Sequence record: MN709127.1
Reading direction: 5' to 3' (one strand)
Origin: Escherichia phage Ec_Makalu_002
Length of the DNA stretch: 64,000 nucleotides
Both the position numbers and the translations under genes were made by a program. Below, piece by piece: positions 3,370-48,331 of the stretch (the stretch's first letter is position 1; the number at the start of each line of letters is the position of its first letter). A model generated the notes under the pieces. It saw only the letters and a program-made list of their open reading frames with translations. It had not been told where the DNA came from and ran no database searches.

Positions 3370-3957
3370 CTAAATATCTAACCAAGACAAGTCAGATCCG
3401 CCCAAGATTTTTTCGACGGCGGATCTATTTTCTTGATGATATAAGTTAAAACATGGTATCCCATGTCTACGGGCAACATAAACAGCAATTCGAGTTCCTC
3501 CCGAAACGATTCCATTAACTTCTTTCGCCCAGAATATCACACAATCTACAGGATCATCAAGTGTCTCACCTAAGACTTGAGCAACATTTCTAGAAAACAG
3601 ATTTTGCATGTATAACGGTATAGAACGAGGATTATCATAAACGTGTTCTAATTCATCCATCGCCAGATTTTTTTGTTCTAAGGTTTGCCATGCAATCACA
3701 TCATGACCGTTATGCTTGTGATCATAAAACTTCCAATTTGGAATGAAAATTTTTCTATAATCTGGATCGTAATACTTCATGAAAGCATTGTCCATACCGT
3801 AAGCCCCTCCAGAATGCGCTACAACGCGATTTTCTGACAATACCCTCCCAATGGTACTAGCCATTATCAAAATGTCGCTAGGCGCTTTTCTAGAGCCTAT
3901 TAAAGCACATCTACGAAGTGGTTTTACTCCAAATAGATCTTGTAACTGGTCAAACAT
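3370..3957 (-). CDS. DprA/Smf-like (SLOG-type Rossmann) protein
   Basis: GGAGGA RBS; motifs ALIGSRKAP...VAHSGGAYGMDNAF...GGTRIAVYVARRHGIPCF resemble the DprA Rossmann domain (GSR / SG-A-G-D / GT...A...G-P). Confidence 0.5.
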   Translation of the reverse strand: MFDQLQDLFGVKPLRRCALIGSRKAPSDILIMASTIGRVLSENRVVAHSGGAYGMDNAFMKYYDPDYRKIFIPNWKFYDHKHNGHDVIAWQTLEQKNLAMDELEHVYDNPRSIPLYMQNLFSRNVAQVLGETLDDPVDCVIFWAKEVNGIVSGGTRIAVYVARRHGIPCFNLYHQENRSAVEKILGGSDLSWLDI

Positions 3958-28421: not shown

Positions 28422-28898
28422 TTATTTTTCTTGATGCTCGCGCTCGTACTTTTCGAAATAAAATTCTACTGGCTGATCGTGGATTGAAAGCAAGCCAAAG
28501 CGTTTAGCCGCACGTAATCCCATGTTACGTTGAATGTACTTCTGGAAGTTCTCGCGTATACACTTACGCCAGTATTCTAAGCCCATACAGCTTTTGTAAA
28601 GATTGCATTGCACACAAGCCGGATTCATGTTGTCAAGTATATCGTGCTCCGGTTTATGCATTCCTACAACCTTATACTTCCACGACCCATCATCATTACG
28701 GGCAATTCGTCCATTTTCATCATAGACTACTTTTGAGCGTCGCAATACTGGTTTGATGTGGTCTGCGTGCCAGCGATCCCCTAGTTCCTCGCCACAATAG
28801 GCACAACGTCCACCGTATTTCATTTTCAGGATCTGGCGTTGCTCTTTCTTTGACAATTTTTTAGGTTTAGGGGCTTTCGCCCCTTCATTATCACACAT
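28422..28898 (-). CDS. HNH endonuclease
   Basis: CAYCGEEL...WHADHIKP...CVQCN (His-Me finger with flanking Cys pairs). Confidence 0.7.
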   Translation of the reverse strand: MCDNEGAKAPKPKKLSKKEQRQILKMKYGGRCAYCGEELGDRWHADHIKPVLRRSKVVYDENGRIARNDDGSWKYKVVGMHKPEHDILDNMNPACVQCNLYKSCMGLEYWRKCIRENFQKYIQRNMGLRAAKRFGLLSIHDQPVEFYFEKYEREHQEK

Positions 28899-30393
28899 CG
28901 AATACCTCTTTTACTGTATTTGCAGTGGTCTTGTCGTAGCGAATACGTTTGATGATTGGGAGAAATAAAGAGAACTCCGGTTCATCTTCTTTACGTGATT
29001 TGCTGCGGATATATCCGTTGCATGTCATCTCAATGACTTTTCCAATCAGGTTATGACGGTCAGCCCATAACATTTCTCGGTCAAGTTCATTTCGACGATC
29101 GAACGGAATTACACGTTCAATACCATCATCACCTTTTTCGGTTGTGGTGTCTGTCAATCCCGATCCGGTGTTAGTCATCATTCGTCCGCACGCACTACGG
29201 ACAGTAAAACCGCCTACCTTGTTAGGTTCTTTACTGTGCGGATATACATCAACAATTTCCGCGTCGAAGTCAATCACTTCTTTAAATTTAACCTGGTCTT
29301 TACTGCGACGATCTTCAAATACACCATGTAAATTTTTAAGGATAATACCTTCTAATCCCATGTTGACATAACGATGATATACTTCGCGAGCTTCATCGAT
29401 ATTGTTAACTACAGTATTTTCGATTATCTGAACACGAGGATCGTTAAGTTCTTCAACAATCTGTTTTAGTTCTTCGAATCGATCTTTATATTGCTTCGTT
29501 GCTTTCTCGTTTCCGTAATACACATCACGGTCGATAACATCCCAGACAGTGTAAACAATACATTGGGCTTCTTCTTTTGGAATAGTTCCTTTCAGTGATT
29601 TGTTGAGGATACCATTTCCGGTCTGACGGTCTGCAACAACGGATTCTTTCACTGCTTCCGCTACTGGCGTTAATGGCATTTCCTCTTCTTCAAATATCCA
29701 TGATAGAGTACCATCATAAACGCTCTCAACGAAGTTCTGCGCTGGTGTTTGAGAAAGGGTAGGCATATATACCAACTCACCATCTAAAACAATTCCACGG
29801 CCTCGTAGACGCTCTAAAACAGCAAACAAATCATCCAGCCCCTGATAGGTATTACCTGAACGGGTATAGATTGCTAATGTTTCTCCGTCAATATCAGCCA
29901 TACCACGAGCGCCATCGCTTTTAAGTTGTGCATACGCCGGATATTTGATATTGGCAATAGTCTTATCAGAACATGACGATGCAAGGTGGCACGGCTGCTG
30001 AGGAATCAGCTTCTTCCATACCTTGTTTGCGGTGGTAGCGGAACAACCGCATTCCAGATCACGATTCAGGACCATCATTGCAACTTTAGCATCATCTTCT
30101 GACAAGCAAGTCAGAGTATCGGTAACTAGCTGTAATGCAGCATTACCAGTTACTTGACGCGTGGCAAGTTTATTTTTAAAGACCTGTAATGCACCGGATA
30201 AAGACAATACAGACGAATAGCGAGACGGTTTATCGTATTTCTTTACGCCAAACGTAACCTGCTTGCAATATGCCAGATAAAAGCATTCTTTCAGCGTTTC
30301 ATTGCTTGCAGATTCTTTCAGGATCTTTTCTTTCAGCGATGTTTTGTCAGTAGCTGCAAGCTGATTAATGATATTAAGAATTGACATTTTCAC
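28891..30393 (-). CDS. 30: ATP-dependent DNA ligase gp30
   Basis: 500 aa; adenylation motif AQLKSDGARG; overall resemblance to T4 DNA ligase. Confidence 0.9.
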   Translation of the reverse strand: MKMSILNIINQLAATDKTSLKEKILKESASNETLKECFYLAYCKQVTFGVKKYDKPSRYSSVLSLSGALQVFKNKLATRQVTGNAALQLVTDTLTCLSEDDAKVAMMVLNRDLECGCSATTANKVWKKLIPQQPCHLASSCSDKTIANIKYPAYAQLKSDGARGMADIDGETLAIYTRSGNTYQGLDDLFAVLERLRGRGIVLDGELVYMPTLSQTPAQNFVESVYDGTLSWIFEEEEMPLTPVAEAVKESVVADRQTGNGILNKSLKGTIPKEEAQCIVYTVWDVIDRDVYYGNEKATKQYKDRFEELKQIVEELNDPRVQIIENTVVNNIDEAREVYHRYVNMGLEGIILKNLHGVFEDRRSKDQVKFKEVIDFDAEIVDVYPHSKEPNKVGGFTVRSACGRMMTNTGSGLTDTTTEKGDDGIERVIPFDRRNELDREMLWADRHNLIGKVIEMTCNGYIRSKSRKEDEPEFSLFLPIIKRIRYDKTTANTVKEVFDV

Positions 30394-41577: not shown

Positions 41578-41880
41578 TCATATATCAAGCGTATTTTCTG
41601 GAGTATCGCCGAAAACTCTATTAACGAGATCCGCCAATACTTCACCGTGGCATTTCTTAGGGTAGCAAGTACAACCTAAGCGCATATGTCTTAATACTTC
41701 TAAATGCGCCCGTGTTATCTCACCATTTCGAATCTTATTATACAACCACTCTTTGTATAATGCAATAGCTTTCTCTCGTCCGTATTCTTTGGCGGTGTAT
41801 GGATTTCCCCACATAGTACCACGCTGAATATTAACATCAAAATCGCTATTGTATTTGTTTACAACGCGGCATATTTTCAT
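41578..41880 (-). CDS. DUF4326-like protein
   Basis: WGNPY ... LGCTCYPKKCHGEVL pattern; C-terminus ...ENTLDI. Confidence 0.45.
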   Translation of the reverse strand: MKICRVVNKYNSDFDVNIQRGTMWGNPYTAKEYGREKAIALYKEWLYNKIRNGEITRAHLEVLRHMRLGCTCYPKKCHGEVLADLVNRVFGDTPENTLDI

Positions 41881-41916
41881 TTGATACTCCTTGCGGGGAT
41901 TCCTCCCCGCATTTGT

Positions 41917-43149
41917 TTATACTGCCATTTGAGCGGTGATTGCCGGATGGCTTTGATAGTTGTGAATTTTAAAGTCTTTCGGAGTTTTTGTCAATACCTC
42001 ATCTAAAGATTTAAATTCCGGCAACTCAATTGTTGGTTTATCAAACGGAACACGGCTTAACTGTTCCATCACTTGGTCAAAGTGATTTTTGTAAATGTGA
42101 GTATCTCCGCCGGAGAAAATCAGTTCTCCTACTTCGAGATCACACATTTTCGCTATGATGTGAGTTAACAGCGCATAGCTGGCGACGTTAAAGGGCAAGC
42201 CCAAAAAGCTGTCTACGCTTCGCTGAAACCACATACAAGACAGTTTACCCTCATTGACATAGAATTGCACGAACGGATGACATACACCTAATACAGCATT
42301 ATGTGTTCCTTGTACGTTCCATGAGTCAATAATGATCCGGCGATCCGTTGGATTGTTTTTAATTTGTTCAATCACGTTTTGTAACTGGTCTTCCCAAATC
42401 TTCGGGCGATAGACATATTCTTCATCGTCTTTAGTGCTCGATGTGTCTATGTCCATACTAGCAAAGATCGTGGTATCTGGCGCTAAAATATCCCCGCCTA
42501 GATAATCACTATCAAGCAGATAACCGAAATAACCATCATCTACCCATTCCTGGAATCCCCACAAGCAATATGCATCATTAACAAAATTAGATTGAGTCTT
42601 CCAGTGGTCTGCTACTAAGAATTGATTATATTCAGAATCAAACTCTTCATAACGCATACCACGCCAGATAGCACATAAACGGTCTTCTGTGTCGTTGGTT
42701 GGCGTAAAGTCTTCTACCCACGGGTGTTTAAATGTATGTGTATATTTGCTCTTAACGCGCTTAATTTTGATTTCACCGTGTGGATGAATCGGTTTGCGTC
42801 GCCACGCCATACCATACATATTGCCGACATTATAACCATTGAATCGCAAGGGATTCTTTTCTTTCATATCAAGACAGTTGCCGCGCCAAATATCAAATGC
42901 TTCCTCGTCAAACTTTCCGCGTGTAATTTCCTGTAAGCGACGGCGGTCAAGTGATCCCTCCATAAACCATAGCAATTCGCCAATTACAGAGGCTGTAGCC
43001 ATCTTTTTAGTGGTCAGTAATGGGAAACCCTTGCTTAAATCAATTCGCATCTCTGTGCCGAATTTAGAGAGCGTACCTACCCCCGTTCGGTCTTCACGAG
43101 GCCAGCCATTATCAAGAACATCACGCAATAGTTTCAAATATTCTTTCAT
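41917..43149 (-). CDS. td: thymidylate synthase with a large internal insertion
   Basis: ThyA motifs (ELLWF, DRRIIIDSWN, GVCHPFVQFY, SVDSFLGLPFNVASYALL) plus about 110 extra residues after the WRR segment. Confidence 0.8.
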   Translation of the reverse strand: MKEYLKLLRDVLDNGWPREDRTGVGTLSKFGTEMRIDLSKGFPLLTTKKMATASVIGELLWFMEGSLDRRRLQEITRGKFDEEAFDIWRGNCLDMKEKNPLRFNGYNVGNMYGMAWRRKPIHPHGEIKIKRVKSKYTHTFKHPWVEDFTPTNDTEDRLCAIWRGMRYEEFDSEYNQFLVADHWKTQSNFVNDAYCLWGFQEWVDDGYFGYLLDSDYLGGDILAPDTTIFASMDIDTSSTKDDEEYVYRPKIWEDQLQNVIEQIKNNPTDRRIIIDSWNVQGTHNAVLGVCHPFVQFYVNEGKLSCMWFQRSVDSFLGLPFNVASYALLTHIIAKMCDLEVGELIFSGGDTHIYKNHFDQVMEQLSRVPFDKPTIELPEFKSLDEVLTKTPKDFKIHNYQSHPAITAQMAV

Positions 43150-44902: not shown

Positions 44903-45877
44903 TTACATCGCTAACAGAGAATCCAGGTCATCCAGATCAGAAGCGGAGGAAGTACCGCCACCCAGGTCCAGAGATGCCATCAGGTCATCAGCGGAAGAAT
45001 CTAACGCCGTGCTAGCTGCGTTAATACCAACTACAGTGCTAGCTGCGGTAGTACCAGCGTCGAATGCATTCATCTGTGCGTCAAAATCATCAAGCTGGCT
45101 GTTAATCGCTGCCGCAGCACTGGAAGCCGCAGCACCAGCTACCATAGAAACGCCCATAGTTTTCTTAAATTTGGTTTCCAGTTCATCGAACGGTTTAAAC
45201 TGGCTAGGCGCTACAATCTCACTCAGATCAACCATGTTTTCCATCAGATATTTCTGATATGCTTCGTCTTCAATTTTCGGAAGCTGTGATTGCTGCATGA
45301 AACGAGAATCATCATAGTTCTGGTGTTTATCAACCTTCTTAGCTTTCAGGAGGAAGTTAGCACCGGAGAACACACAAGTTACATCTACCGGAACTTCGCC
45401 CATGTCGGTATTCACGTTAACCATCGCAACGATCTTATCATAAATTTTCTGACCGAAGCGGAATTTAAATACCTTACCTTCGTTTTCTGGTGCTTGAGGA
45501 TCTTTCAGTACCAGAATGTTTGCGTAGTAAGACGCTTTACGCTTAATCAGTTGCCATTCGGTTTTATCGGTATTGTACAAATCTTTTTCGTTAATATATT
45601 TGCACACAGGGCAAGAATCAAAATCACCGTGGGTGCTGGAGCAGTTTTCCCAATACCATTTTCCATTAACTTTGAAGGAATGGTTTACCAGTTTCACAAT
45701 CGGCAGACCGTCTTCTGTCTTAGACGGCAGGAAGCGAATCAGGGCTTCACCGTTACCTGCTGCATCAGTCTTAATCTTCCACTCTTTCGGGTCTTCTTTG
45801 GAGAAACCGTTGCCACCTTTCAGTGCGGCCAGTTGAGCTTGCAGTTTGGAAGAATCTTGACGACGGAACATGTTCAT
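44903..45877 (-). CDS. 32: single-stranded DNA-binding protein gp32
   Basis: Strong match to T4 gp32 ([34 protein letters not shown]) with an acidic Ser/Ala-rich tail. Confidence 0.95.
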
Positions 45878-45937: not shown

Positions 45938-46534
45938 TTAATTGCTTGTCAATATTTTATCAATTATATCTAACAGTTTTGGTTTTCTATTTTCAAATTC
46001 TAACATCTCTTCGGGAGAAATGTCAACTACTTCTGTTTTGTTGAAAAAGTTTGGGTCTATAGCATCAGCAACAAAGTTTCTCGCAAGTGCTGCCGCTTTC
46101 TCATGAACATATATTCCCAAATATATCAACTTCTTTCTTTCGACCTGAATATTGGCAACATATTTACCATCTCGTTTATAAAGACTAACGCCGATATATT
46201 CAGATGATCGACCTTTCTGTTTACCCATATTTCTTGAGTTTTGTTGCTCGTTCGCATCTCTCAAGTTTTCAATCCGATTATCTGTTATAATTCGGTTAAT
46301 ATGGTCAACGTATTTTGGCATGTATCCATGATGCATAAAGAAAATTATTCTATGCTCCTTATGATGTTTACCATCGATACACACCAATCTGTATCCATGA
46401 CTAGGATTAACTCCACCCGCTCTAGATCCGACTTTATGCTTTCTGTTTGTCGATATCTTGCGAATCAGCTTACCGTTATCATATTTAAAGAGTTCATGAC
46501 AACGGGCATACAATTCAGGATCATATGTTTTCAC
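45938..46534 (-). CDS. HNH homing-endonuclease-like protein with AP2-type DNA-binding domain
   Basis: His-Me finger motif YVDHINRIITDNRIENL, then EYIGVS...KLIYLGIY...AAALARNF. Confidence 0.65.
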   Translation of the reverse strand: MKTYDPELYARCHELFKYDNGKLIRKISTNRKHKVGSRAGGVNPSHGYRLVCIDGKHHKEHRIIFFMHHGYMPKYVDHINRIITDNRIENLRDANEQQNSRNMGKQKGRSSEYIGVSLYKRDGKYVANIQVERKKLIYLGIYVHEKAAALARNFVADAIDPNFFNKTEVVDISPEEMLEFENRKPKLLDIIDKILTSN

Positions 46535-47207: not shown

Positions 47208-47477
47208 TTAAATATCGAGAGTGTTGGTCGGTTCGTCGATCACTCCCTTCCTGAGCGTTCTATTTACTATACATTCTTGTGTGATCTTGTCAATAATGGA
47301 CACCGGAATATACTTCTGATAGTGACCATATTCGATAGAGTTTTCCTCTACAAACTGAGTGGTCGCTTCAAGATAAGTCAATCCCTCTTCAACAACCAGT
47401 TTTTCGATTGCAAGACCGTTTGCTGTTTTGTTCGCGGCTTTTACCGCATGTTCATTAAGCATTGAACACCCGATCAT
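47208..47477 (-). CDS. 33: late-transcription accessory protein gp33 (by synteny)
   Basis: 89 aa between 59 and dsbA; C-terminal ...TNTLDI fits a clamp-binding tail. Confidence 0.55.
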   Translation of the reverse strand: MIGCSMLNEHAVKAANKTANGLAIEKLVVEEGLTYLEATTQFVEENSIEYGHYQKYIPVSIIDKITQECIVNRTLRKGVIDEPTNTLDI

Positions 47478-47734: not shown

Positions 47735-48331
47735 TTAACCCTCTTTAGTCATTAATTGAAAACCACGTTCAGCTTTTGAGATTTCGCTAGGACTTAAATC
47801 GTCACCCACATATTCTAGCATCATTTCTCGGATAATGTCAAGTGCTTTTTCATCACCTGATTTTAACTCGAACTCAAGTTCATAGTGAGCCTCTCCCATT
47901 CTTTCGCCGACTTTGCAATAATAGAAAGTGTCTTTGCACATTTCCACTATAGCACCCTCAAGGTCAAGTGTCAATGACTTGCGGTATGTCATTACTTGCA
48001 ATAAAGGAACGATAAGGTCGGAGTTTACGCCTAGACTATCAACATAATGATAGAAATCATCCATTGTTGAAAAAGTGATTTCTTCTCGGTTGAATAGTCC
48101 AGATTCACTATCACCTATTTTGACCATGATCAATGATCTATTAACGTCAAGTCGAGCATAAATTCCTTTTCGACGCAGTGCATGATCTTCGGTATCATAA
48201 TAAAATTCGTGTTTTAGTGTGTTAGCATGATCTACGATATTGTACCCGTCATACATTGCTACCAACAAATCACAGATTGTTTCGACGCCAATTTGTGAGT
48301 GTGCATAGTATTTTAATTCAAGTTCTTTCAT
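47735..48331 (-). CDS. CYTH-like (triphosphate tunnel metalloenzyme) protein
   Basis: N-terminal ELELKY, central R-x-R (ALRRKGIYARLDVNR), C-terminal YELEFELK; 198 aa. Confidence 0.5.
   Translation of the reverse strand: MKELELKYYAHSQIGVETICDLLVAMYDGYNIVDHANTLKHEFYYDTEDHALRRKGIYARLDVNRSLIMVKIGDSESGLFNREEITFSTMDDFYHYVDSLGVNSDLIVPLLQVMTYRKSLTLDLEGAIVEMCKDTFYYCKVGERMGEAHYELEFELKSGDEKALDIIREMMLEYVGDDLSPSEISKAERGFQLMTKEG

Follow-up and report, generated by a model that had tools for sequence, protein, structure and literature searches.

Clamp-binding C-termini and the shared NTLDI ending

In phage T4, the DNA polymerase gp43, the late-transcription coactivator gp33 and gp55 bind the sliding clamp gp45 through highly similar hydrophobic-acidic C-termini that are interchangeable (PMC2988020, PMC6212786), and these tails are carried on variable, probably unstructured linkers that make free exchange possible (PMC2988020). 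The C-terminus of gp33 is the gp45-binding epitope (PMC2988020), and the clamp motif LDFLF is found at the end of gp43 (EKASLDFLFG) and in a loop of the DNA ligase (EPEGLDFLFD), where it was first spotted by its similarity to gp43 and then established by size-exclusion chromatography, isothermal titration calorimetry and a crystal structure (PMC6212786). The ligase peptide binds gp45 with a dissociation constant of about 10 uM (PMC6212786, PMC7892883). Here we analyse a stretch of 64,000 nucleotides (hereafter the window) of Escherichia phage Ec_Makalu_002 (MN709127.1), a Krischvirus (RB49-like, T4-type phage), in which a small DUF4326 protein ends in the same five residues, NTLDI, as gp33. 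This coincidence had been noticed in a previous reading of the DNA without database searches (the sequence-only reading), which pointed to the clamp-binding tails of T4 gp33, gp55 and polymerase and suggested recruitment of the DUF4326 protein to gp45; what it stated about T4 is borne out by the papers cited above. We propose, with a probability of roughly 0.6, that NTLDI is a gp45-binding motif that would hold the DUF4326 domain, a small and probably enzymatic module, on the sliding clamp.

Both open reading frames were found where the sequence-only reading had placed them, on the minus strand, which it had left unstated, and Pfam agrees with both of its identifications. The DUF4326 coding sequence (41578..41880, minus strand, stop codon included; 100 residues) matches PF14216 (E=6.5e-23) and ends ...VFGDTPENTLDI. 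The gp33 gene (47208..47477, minus strand), which encodes 89 residues as the longest open reading frame and 84 residues from the start annotated in Escherichia phage E26, matches Trans_coact (PF16805, E=1.8e-26) up to its last residues and ends ...VIDEPTNTLDI. The two tails share D-x-P-x-N-T-L-D-I, with seven of the last ten residues equal. NTLDI is encoded at 41581..41595 in the DUF4326 gene and at 47211..47225 in gp33 (both minus strand), and the codons of the two genes read AAT ACG CTT GAT ATA TGA and AAC ACT CTC GAT ATT TAA. Four of the five synonymous positions and the stop codon thus differ, and the flanking sequences are unrelated. The shared tail can therefore not stem from a recent DNA duplication or gene conversion, and the identity is maintained at the protein level. 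T4-type gp33 tails in our loci L031-L036 read ...EKTNTLDFLL, indicating that NTLDI of Krischvirus gp33 is the positional equivalent of the proven clamp epitope NTLDFLL.

The complete genome of E26, a 94%-identical phage, was rebuilt from four annotated stretches and contains about 258 genes. NTLDI occurs in only two of its proteins, DUF4326 and gp33, and is C-terminal in both; the number of further proteins ending in NTLDI expected from composition is about 2.7e-4. Four of the E26 genes end in [LF]DI, compared with 0.14 expected (Poisson P about 1e-5), and these encode gp43 (...KVASLTDLFDI), gp33 (...EPTNTLDI), the DUF4326 protein (...TPENTLDI) and a protein of the RB49p164 family (...SDLSWLDI). 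When the last eight residues of every gene were scored against the gp33 tail of the same contig with BLOSUM62, the DUF4326 tail was the most gp33-like of the 101 genes in the window, with a score of 31 and a runner-up of 18. The shared ending is thus real and non-random.

The polymerase of this genus has a related C-terminus. The last 60 residues of gp43 are found at full length and at least 99% identity in 56 Krischvirus records, and we therefore took SLTDLFDI as the polymerase tail of the window. This ending (...ASLTDLFDI) shares with NTLDI the -[LF]DI carboxy-end and the S/T-L start. In the DNA ligase gp30 (28891..30393, minus strand; phmmer match to T4 ligase 6dt1, 3.8e-105), phmmer aligns ...YDGTLSWIFEEEE with the loop through which T4 ligase binds gp45; the Krischvirus loop has DGTLSWIFEEEE where T4 ligase has EGLDFLFD, and contains TLSWIF (29692..29709), which resembles the ...DLSWLDI tail of the RB49p164-family protein. 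An internal clamp motif, changed in sequence, is probably retained in the Krischvirus ligase, and TLSWIF was used as a reference within the window for the appearance of a Krischvirus clamp motif. The ligase C-terminus (...KEVFDV) corresponds in the alignment to the conserved end of the T4 ligase OB domain and was not counted as a clamp tail, leaving TLSWIF as the likely ligase motif.

Like the T4 gp43/gp33/gp55-type tails, the DUF4326 tail is short and hydrophobic-acidic and ends the protein after a variable unstructured linker. However, its carrier is a 90-residue DUF4326 domain instead of a polymerase or a transcription factor, and the putative Krischvirus motif TLDI is shorter than the T4 LDFL[FLY]. 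T4 DNA ligase is an earlier case of an enzyme recognised as a gp45 client by the likeness of its motif to that of gp43, with later confirmation (PMC6212786). Its motif is internal and helical, whereas that of the DUF4326 protein is a free C-terminus. The 'tool-belt' clients of cellular clamps, such as the PIP-box proteins on PCNA and the QL[SD]LF proteins on the beta clamp, follow the same logic, in that diverse DNA-acting enzymes are tethered to a ring by a short linear motif, but both the motif chemistry and the clamp differ. The DUF4326 protein would add one more client to a docking system that is already well known, and would not represent a new kind of system.

The DUF4326 protein and its C-terminal extension

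The PF14216 match (81.6 bits against a cut-off of 25) covers profile positions 1-81 of 82 and residues 4-83 of the protein, or 41632..41871 on the minus strand, as confirmed by translation. The C-terminal ...DLVNRVFGDTPENTLDI is left outside this domain. The protein belongs to PHROG 464 (annotated 'unknown function'), with a weak secondary match to PHROG 24867 'NrdA-like' (1.7e-6). Orthologs with 60-67% identity occupy the td/nrdA slot in 34 of 34 T4-like contigs, those of T4-type phages having 61-63%, and the T4 record names this gene nrdA.1. By both sequence and position, the window protein is a member of the T4 NrdA.1 orthologous group. T4 NrdA.1 (PF14216, PHROG 464; about 61-63% identity) shares the position between td and nrdA and the CTC-P-x-x-CHG core, but ends ...DDFQVEDLCN, which is not gp33-like, where the window protein ends NTLDI.

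An alignment of 31 sequences revealed the invariant motifs CRVVNKY...D-N-I-R-T-GN...HLE...GCTC-P-x-x-CHG in the domain. In the AlphaFold2 (AF2) model based on this alignment, with a predicted local distance difference test score (pLDDT) of 89.6, residues 1-90 form a small alpha/beta domain that closes with the helix HGEVLADLVNRVF. The pLDDT falls to a mean of 65 over the last ten residues (GDTPENTLDI, residues 91-100; 41581..41610, minus strand), all of which lie beyond the Pfam domain, and to below 50 at residues 98-100, as expected of a flexible linker followed by a short linear motif. The closest homologs differ in the linker (TPE, RAE, KVN, YQE and TPP) but keep N-x-L-D-I.

Most stand-alone DUF4326 proteins outside the T4-like phages end 9-14 residues past the CHG motif (...DVIAEYLNK, ...DVIVEWLEG), and the remaining ones have unrelated extensions or are fused to further domains, indicating that the tail is an addition specific to the phage clade that encodes gp45. 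One distant DUF4326 protein (P0111, 113 residues) ends ...AAAEEESKGSQLTLL (...GSQLTLL), which is similar to a beta-clamp motif. Its closest relatives, with 72-79% identity, lack this ending, and we dropped the general rule that DUF4326 carries a clamp motif fitting the host.

C-termini across T4-like lineages

We compared the tails in 34 T4-like contigs having both the ortholog and gp33, three closer metagenomic contigs and parts of four reference genomes. The tails and candidate clamp motifs of Krischvirus are SLTDLFDI (gp43), NTLDI (gp33), SLDQFYVIEN (gp55), TLSWIF (ligase loop), NTLDI (DUF4326) and LSWLDI (a DprA-like protein described below). In Morganella phage Mm5, gp43 ends SLTDVFDI, gp33 ALDDI, gp55 NTLDFLEV, the DUF4326 protein NENMLDI and the DprA-like protein PNTLDI. 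The Mm5 DUF4326 gene is located after nrdB, unlike that of the window, and still keeps its -LDI tail. In Muldoon, the corresponding endings are SLTDLFDI (gp43), NTLEDLL (gp33), TLESFYEDET (gp55) and TTLEDI (DUF4326). Thus, in all three lineages whose gp43 ends -FDI (Krischvirus, Mm5 and Muldoon), the DUF4326 protein ends -L(E)DI, and in two of them the DprA-like protein also ends -DI. Mm5 and Muldoon repeat the -DI pattern and can be regarded as independent recurrences of the pattern in the window. In gp33-likeness, the DUF4326 tail ranks 1 of 26 in Muldoon, first or second across the Muldoon group, and first in a close relative of the window (L040).

The tails of the other lineages have different forms. 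In T4-type phages, gp43 ends SLDFLFG, gp33 NTLDFLL and DUF4326 FQVEDLCN, the ligase loop has LDFLF, and no DprA-like protein was seen. In Slopekvirus (KP15 and BL02), gp43 ends SLNDLFGDW, gp33 NTLDFLL, DUF4326 F[ST]LEDL and the DprA-like protein PTLDFLW. Co-variation of the DUF4326 tail with the clamp motif is therefore present in Krischvirus, Mm5 and Muldoon and absent in T4-type phages and Slopekvirus. Across the T4-like phages, the DUF4326 tail has the form [LIV]-E-D-[LI], in many cases with CK or CN after it, and is conserved in its own right across many genera.

These comparisons suggest that the RB49, Mm5 and Muldoon lineages have replaced LDFLF by a -(L/F)DI carboxy-end as their clamp motif, which could be useful for finding further clients. 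Some other proteins have similar endings. In many T4-type contigs, the most gp33-like tails are the extreme C-termini of gp32 (LDDLLAGL or LDDLLNDL among the genes of L006-L044), whose gene in the window is at 44903..45877 on the minus strand. Small uncharacterised proteins in L026 (16399..16659), L006 (15387..15875) and L039 (17472..17969) end ...LLDLLFGN or ...LIDLLCGK, resembling gp43 SLDFLFG, and are possible further clamp clients.

A DprA/SLOG-like protein with a clamp-type tail

The fourth [LF]DI protein is a DprA-like/SLOG-superfamily protein of the RB49p164 family (3370..3957, minus strand; 195 residues), which ends GGSDLSWLDI, with the tail at 3373..3390. It matches PHROG 768 'DprA-like' (1e-60) and, below threshold, Pfam DprA (8e-5), and a foldseek search with its AF2 model retrieved DprA (8e-6) as well as ShosA, LOG and the SLOG domain of ThsA. 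Its homologs end PTLDFLW in Slopekvirus (such as KP15) and in Lw1 and RB16-type phages, and PRTLDMFL, SLDWLF or TLDDFF elsewhere; more distant homologs, some of which are fused to helicase-sized proteins, lack the tail. The tail is canonical where the clamp motif of the lineage is canonical, and -LDI is found only in Krischvirus and Mm5. This clean co-variation in an unrelated family independently marks -LDI-COOH as the clamp motif of Krischvirus and Mm5, and, judged by its tail, the DprA-like protein looks like an unreported gp45 client. In Klebsiella phage KP15 (L048 147426..150777), the DprA-like gene comes after an RNA ligase gene, and nadV (nicotinamide phosphoribosyltransferase) is found 1.3 kb downstream of it, which hints at a link to NAD metabolism.

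Both families meet in other organisms. Among 119 relatives listed for one distant member, 68 are fusions of DUF4326 with a 'minimal SLOG' domain, and three representatives combine DUF4326 with a YspA-type SLOG. DUF4326 is also reported to be fused to components of replication and restriction-modification systems (PMC7824862), and in amoeba viruses it is joined to SLOG homologs of an anti-Avs protein (bioRxiv 10.1101/2025.06.06.658234). The wider DUF4326 family is associated with SLOG, Macro and NADAR domains and not with ribonucleotide reductase. The SLOG-DUF4326 fusions of bacteria and giant viruses are predicted to process NAD or ADP-ribose, whereas the window encodes both families as separate proteins, with genes about 38 kb apart. 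Both window proteins carry a clamp-type tail, while no SLOG-DUF4326 fusion protein was seen with such a tail. A hidden Markov model search comparing the window DprA-like protein with the SLOG domains fused to DUF4326 gave no significant match and aligned only the GSR...GGA-G-D motif, so the link is made at the level of superfamily membership, through the Pfam DprA/YAcAr matches and the fold matches. As these families are fused elsewhere and, in the window, are separate and both equipped with a clamp-type tail, a joint action on clamp-loaded DNA may be proposed.

Interpretation and alternative explanations

In the proposed model, the linker GDTPE and NTLDI-COOH would be the Krischvirus version of the T4 'LDFLF' tail, placed by a short flexible linker on a folded 90-residue DUF4326 domain. 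This domain has been proposed to be rhodanese/Cys-phosphatase-like (PMC9503650), and others predict that its substrates are ribose-linked phosphates of the NAD/ADP-ribose type; it is probably a small enzymatic module. The tail would tether it to replicating or nicked phage DNA through gp45, whose gene is located outside the window. We found no late promoter (TATAAATA) near the DUF4326 gene, which lies inside the td-nrdA unit, and we therefore propose that the protein is made together with the replication proteins and rides on loaded clamps. There, it would compete with gp33 and gp43 for clamp sites, and the DprA/SLOG-like protein, with the same kind of tail, would probably work with it. We infer the gp45 binding, the site of action and the activity of the DUF4326 protein from these comparisons. 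The clamp-motif case is strong only for the DUF4326 forms of Krischvirus, Mm5 and Muldoon, as judged from their tails.

Several observations weigh against this proposal. NTLDI offers two hydrophobic side chains where LDFLF offers four, and its affinity for gp45 may be low, although the same would hold for gp33 of this phage. In most lineages, T4-type phages and Slopekvirus included, gp33 ends NTLDFLL but the DUF4326 protein ends F-x-[LIV]-E-D-L(CK/CN); in gp33-likeness, the latter tail is mid-field and the LDDLL tail of gp32 is the top scorer. In one lineage the DUF4326 protein ends merely ...NDKIYL. It may thus be that the DUF4326 family tail has a partner of its own and that the identity with gp33 in Krischvirus is a special case. 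Finally, gp55 of the genus ends ...EELPSLDQFYVIEN (...PSLDQFYVIEN), following the T4-type LDFLY pattern and not NTLDI. The sequence-only reading had named unrelated C-termini of gp43 and gp55 as grounds for giving up its proposal; this test, like the others that were run, came out in its favour, gp43 being related to NTLDI, although gp55 keeps the T4-type pattern. Its clamp-tail interpretation is supported in part: the tail lies outside the domain, and the Mm5 and Muldoon tails match their own gp43, but the gp55 ending and the DUF4326 tails of T4-type phages, Slopekvirus and most other lineages, which are no more gp33-like than those of neighbouring genes, do not fit it.

Alternatively, the tail might dock to a different protein of the replisome or of nucleotide metabolism that recognises acidic-hydrophobic C-termini, as gp59, gp43 and Dda do with the tail of gp32; in Krischvirus, its identity with gp33 would then be convergence in a narrow sequence space. 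The DUF4326 tails outside Krischvirus, Mm5 and Muldoon (F[ST]LEDL, VEDLCN) resemble gp32 tails about as much as gp33 tails, are not top-ranked against gp33 and keep the family form across many genera, which speaks for this explanation. However, gp32 of the window has an ending unlike NTLDI, whereas gp33 matches at seven of ten residues, and the -DI ends of gp43, gp33, the DprA-like protein and DUF4326 in the same lineages point to one shared receptor. In addition, although the family tail is not the canonical LDFLF, it is within the range of bona fide gp33 epitopes, as Muldoon TLEDLL and Mm5 ALDDI already have the form L-[DE]-D-[LI]. We consider such a partner unlikely for the window protein, while the T4-type DUF4326 forms may have one. 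A partner encoded next door, NrdA, is highly improbable. Class Ia R2 proteins of ribonucleotide reductase bind R1 through a C-terminal peptide, and the DUF4326 tail could mimic this peptide and dock the protein on NrdA, an idea favoured by the adjoining nrdA gene, which starts 11 nucleotides after the DUF4326 stop codon, by the retention of this position in all 34 contigs and by the 'NrdA-like' PHROG match. But the NrdB tails are basic-aromatic (...DDYNRFGKYL in the window, ...FRKYL and ...FKKYF in relatives) and share nothing with NTLDI or LEDL, the Mm5 gene retains -LDI away from the start of nrdA, and the domains that accompany the DUF4326 family are those named above and not ribonucleotide reductase.

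The shared ending might also have no targeting function, being due to chance, composition or gene-end signals. The motif has only five residues, and short acidic-hydrophobic C-termini are common in T4-like proteomes (...KIDW, ...IYDY, ...ALDW, ...VFDV). Nevertheless, about 3e-4 NTLDI endings are expected, the [LF]DI endings are four against 0.14, the synonymous sites and the downstream DNA differ, the L and the final I persist in homologs with differing linkers, and the pattern recurs in Mm5 and Muldoon; we regard this explanation as quite improbable. An overlapping regulatory signal that constrains the codons was rejected, as no late promoter is nearby and the downstream ribosome-binding sites differ.

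If gp45 binding by the DUF4326 protein is correct, the tail would place NrdA.1/DUF4326, which is conserved across T4-like phages including T4 and for which we found no reported function, at replication forks. A small non-replicative enzyme and a DprA/SLOG-like protein would join the polymerase, ligase, gp33, gp55 and the clamp loader as gp45 clients; we found no report of an interaction of NrdA.1/DUF4326 or phage DprA-like proteins with gp45 in the literature. The DUF4326 and SLOG families, fused elsewhere, are predicted to act in conflicts over NAD and ADP-ribose, suggesting a link between phage counter-defence chemistry and the replisome. As a speculative and rather doubtful extension, the two proteins could form a two-part gp45-tethered module that processes ribose-phosphate or ADP-ribose-type adducts or nucleotide signals on replicating DNA. 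Such a module might serve, for example, in counter-defence against DNA ADP-ribosylation or NAD-based immunity; NAD/ADP-ribose-processing enzymes would then be a new class of sliding-clamp clients, and competition with gp33 could tune the switch from replication to late transcription.

Genetic locus and other observations

The 7.5 kb region around the DUF4326 and gp33 genes is 94-98% identical to Escherichia phages E26, Makalu_003, RB49 and others. Its genes are all encoded by the minus strand and are arranged as rnh - CYTH protein - dsbA - gp33 - gp59 - HNH endonuclease - gp32 - two small open reading frames - frd - small open reading frame - td - DUF4326 - nrdA - nrdB. The DUF4326 gene is thus part of a td - DUF4326 - nrdA operon, lying between td and nrdA as the sequence-only reading had it. 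The start codon of nrdA is preceded by a GAGG ribosome-binding site. On the other side, td (PF00303) is separated from the DUF4326 gene by a gap of 36 nucleotides containing a hairpin, then the AAGGAG ribosome-binding site of the DUF4326 gene. The hairpin (about 41893..41910, minus strand) has a perfect 7-bp stem (GCGGGGA-GGAA-TCCCCGC). Since a T-run is missing, it is not a classic terminator, but it may act in the stability or processing of the RNA.

Several genes of this block vary among relatives. The td gene (41917..43149, minus strand) encodes a thymidylate synthase of 410 residues in which the Pfam profile of 266 positions is matched end to end, indicating an in-frame insertion of about 140 residues; td of the relatives encodes 401-412 residues, and one relative (L043) has a split td. 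The nrdA gene is intact in the window, but is split into two open reading frames by an inserted NUMOD/HNH endonuclease gene in L040 (4689..7876), L042 and L044 (10308..13355). A homing-endonuclease-like gene with HNH_3 and AP2 domains (45938..46534, minus strand) is inserted between gp32 and gp59; several close relatives lack it at this position, where the alignment breaks into pieces. A CYTH-domain protein of the triphosphate tunnel family (47735..48331, minus strand; 198 residues) is encoded between dsbA and rnh, and in L043 an HD-domain protein is found in its place directly upstream of rnh.

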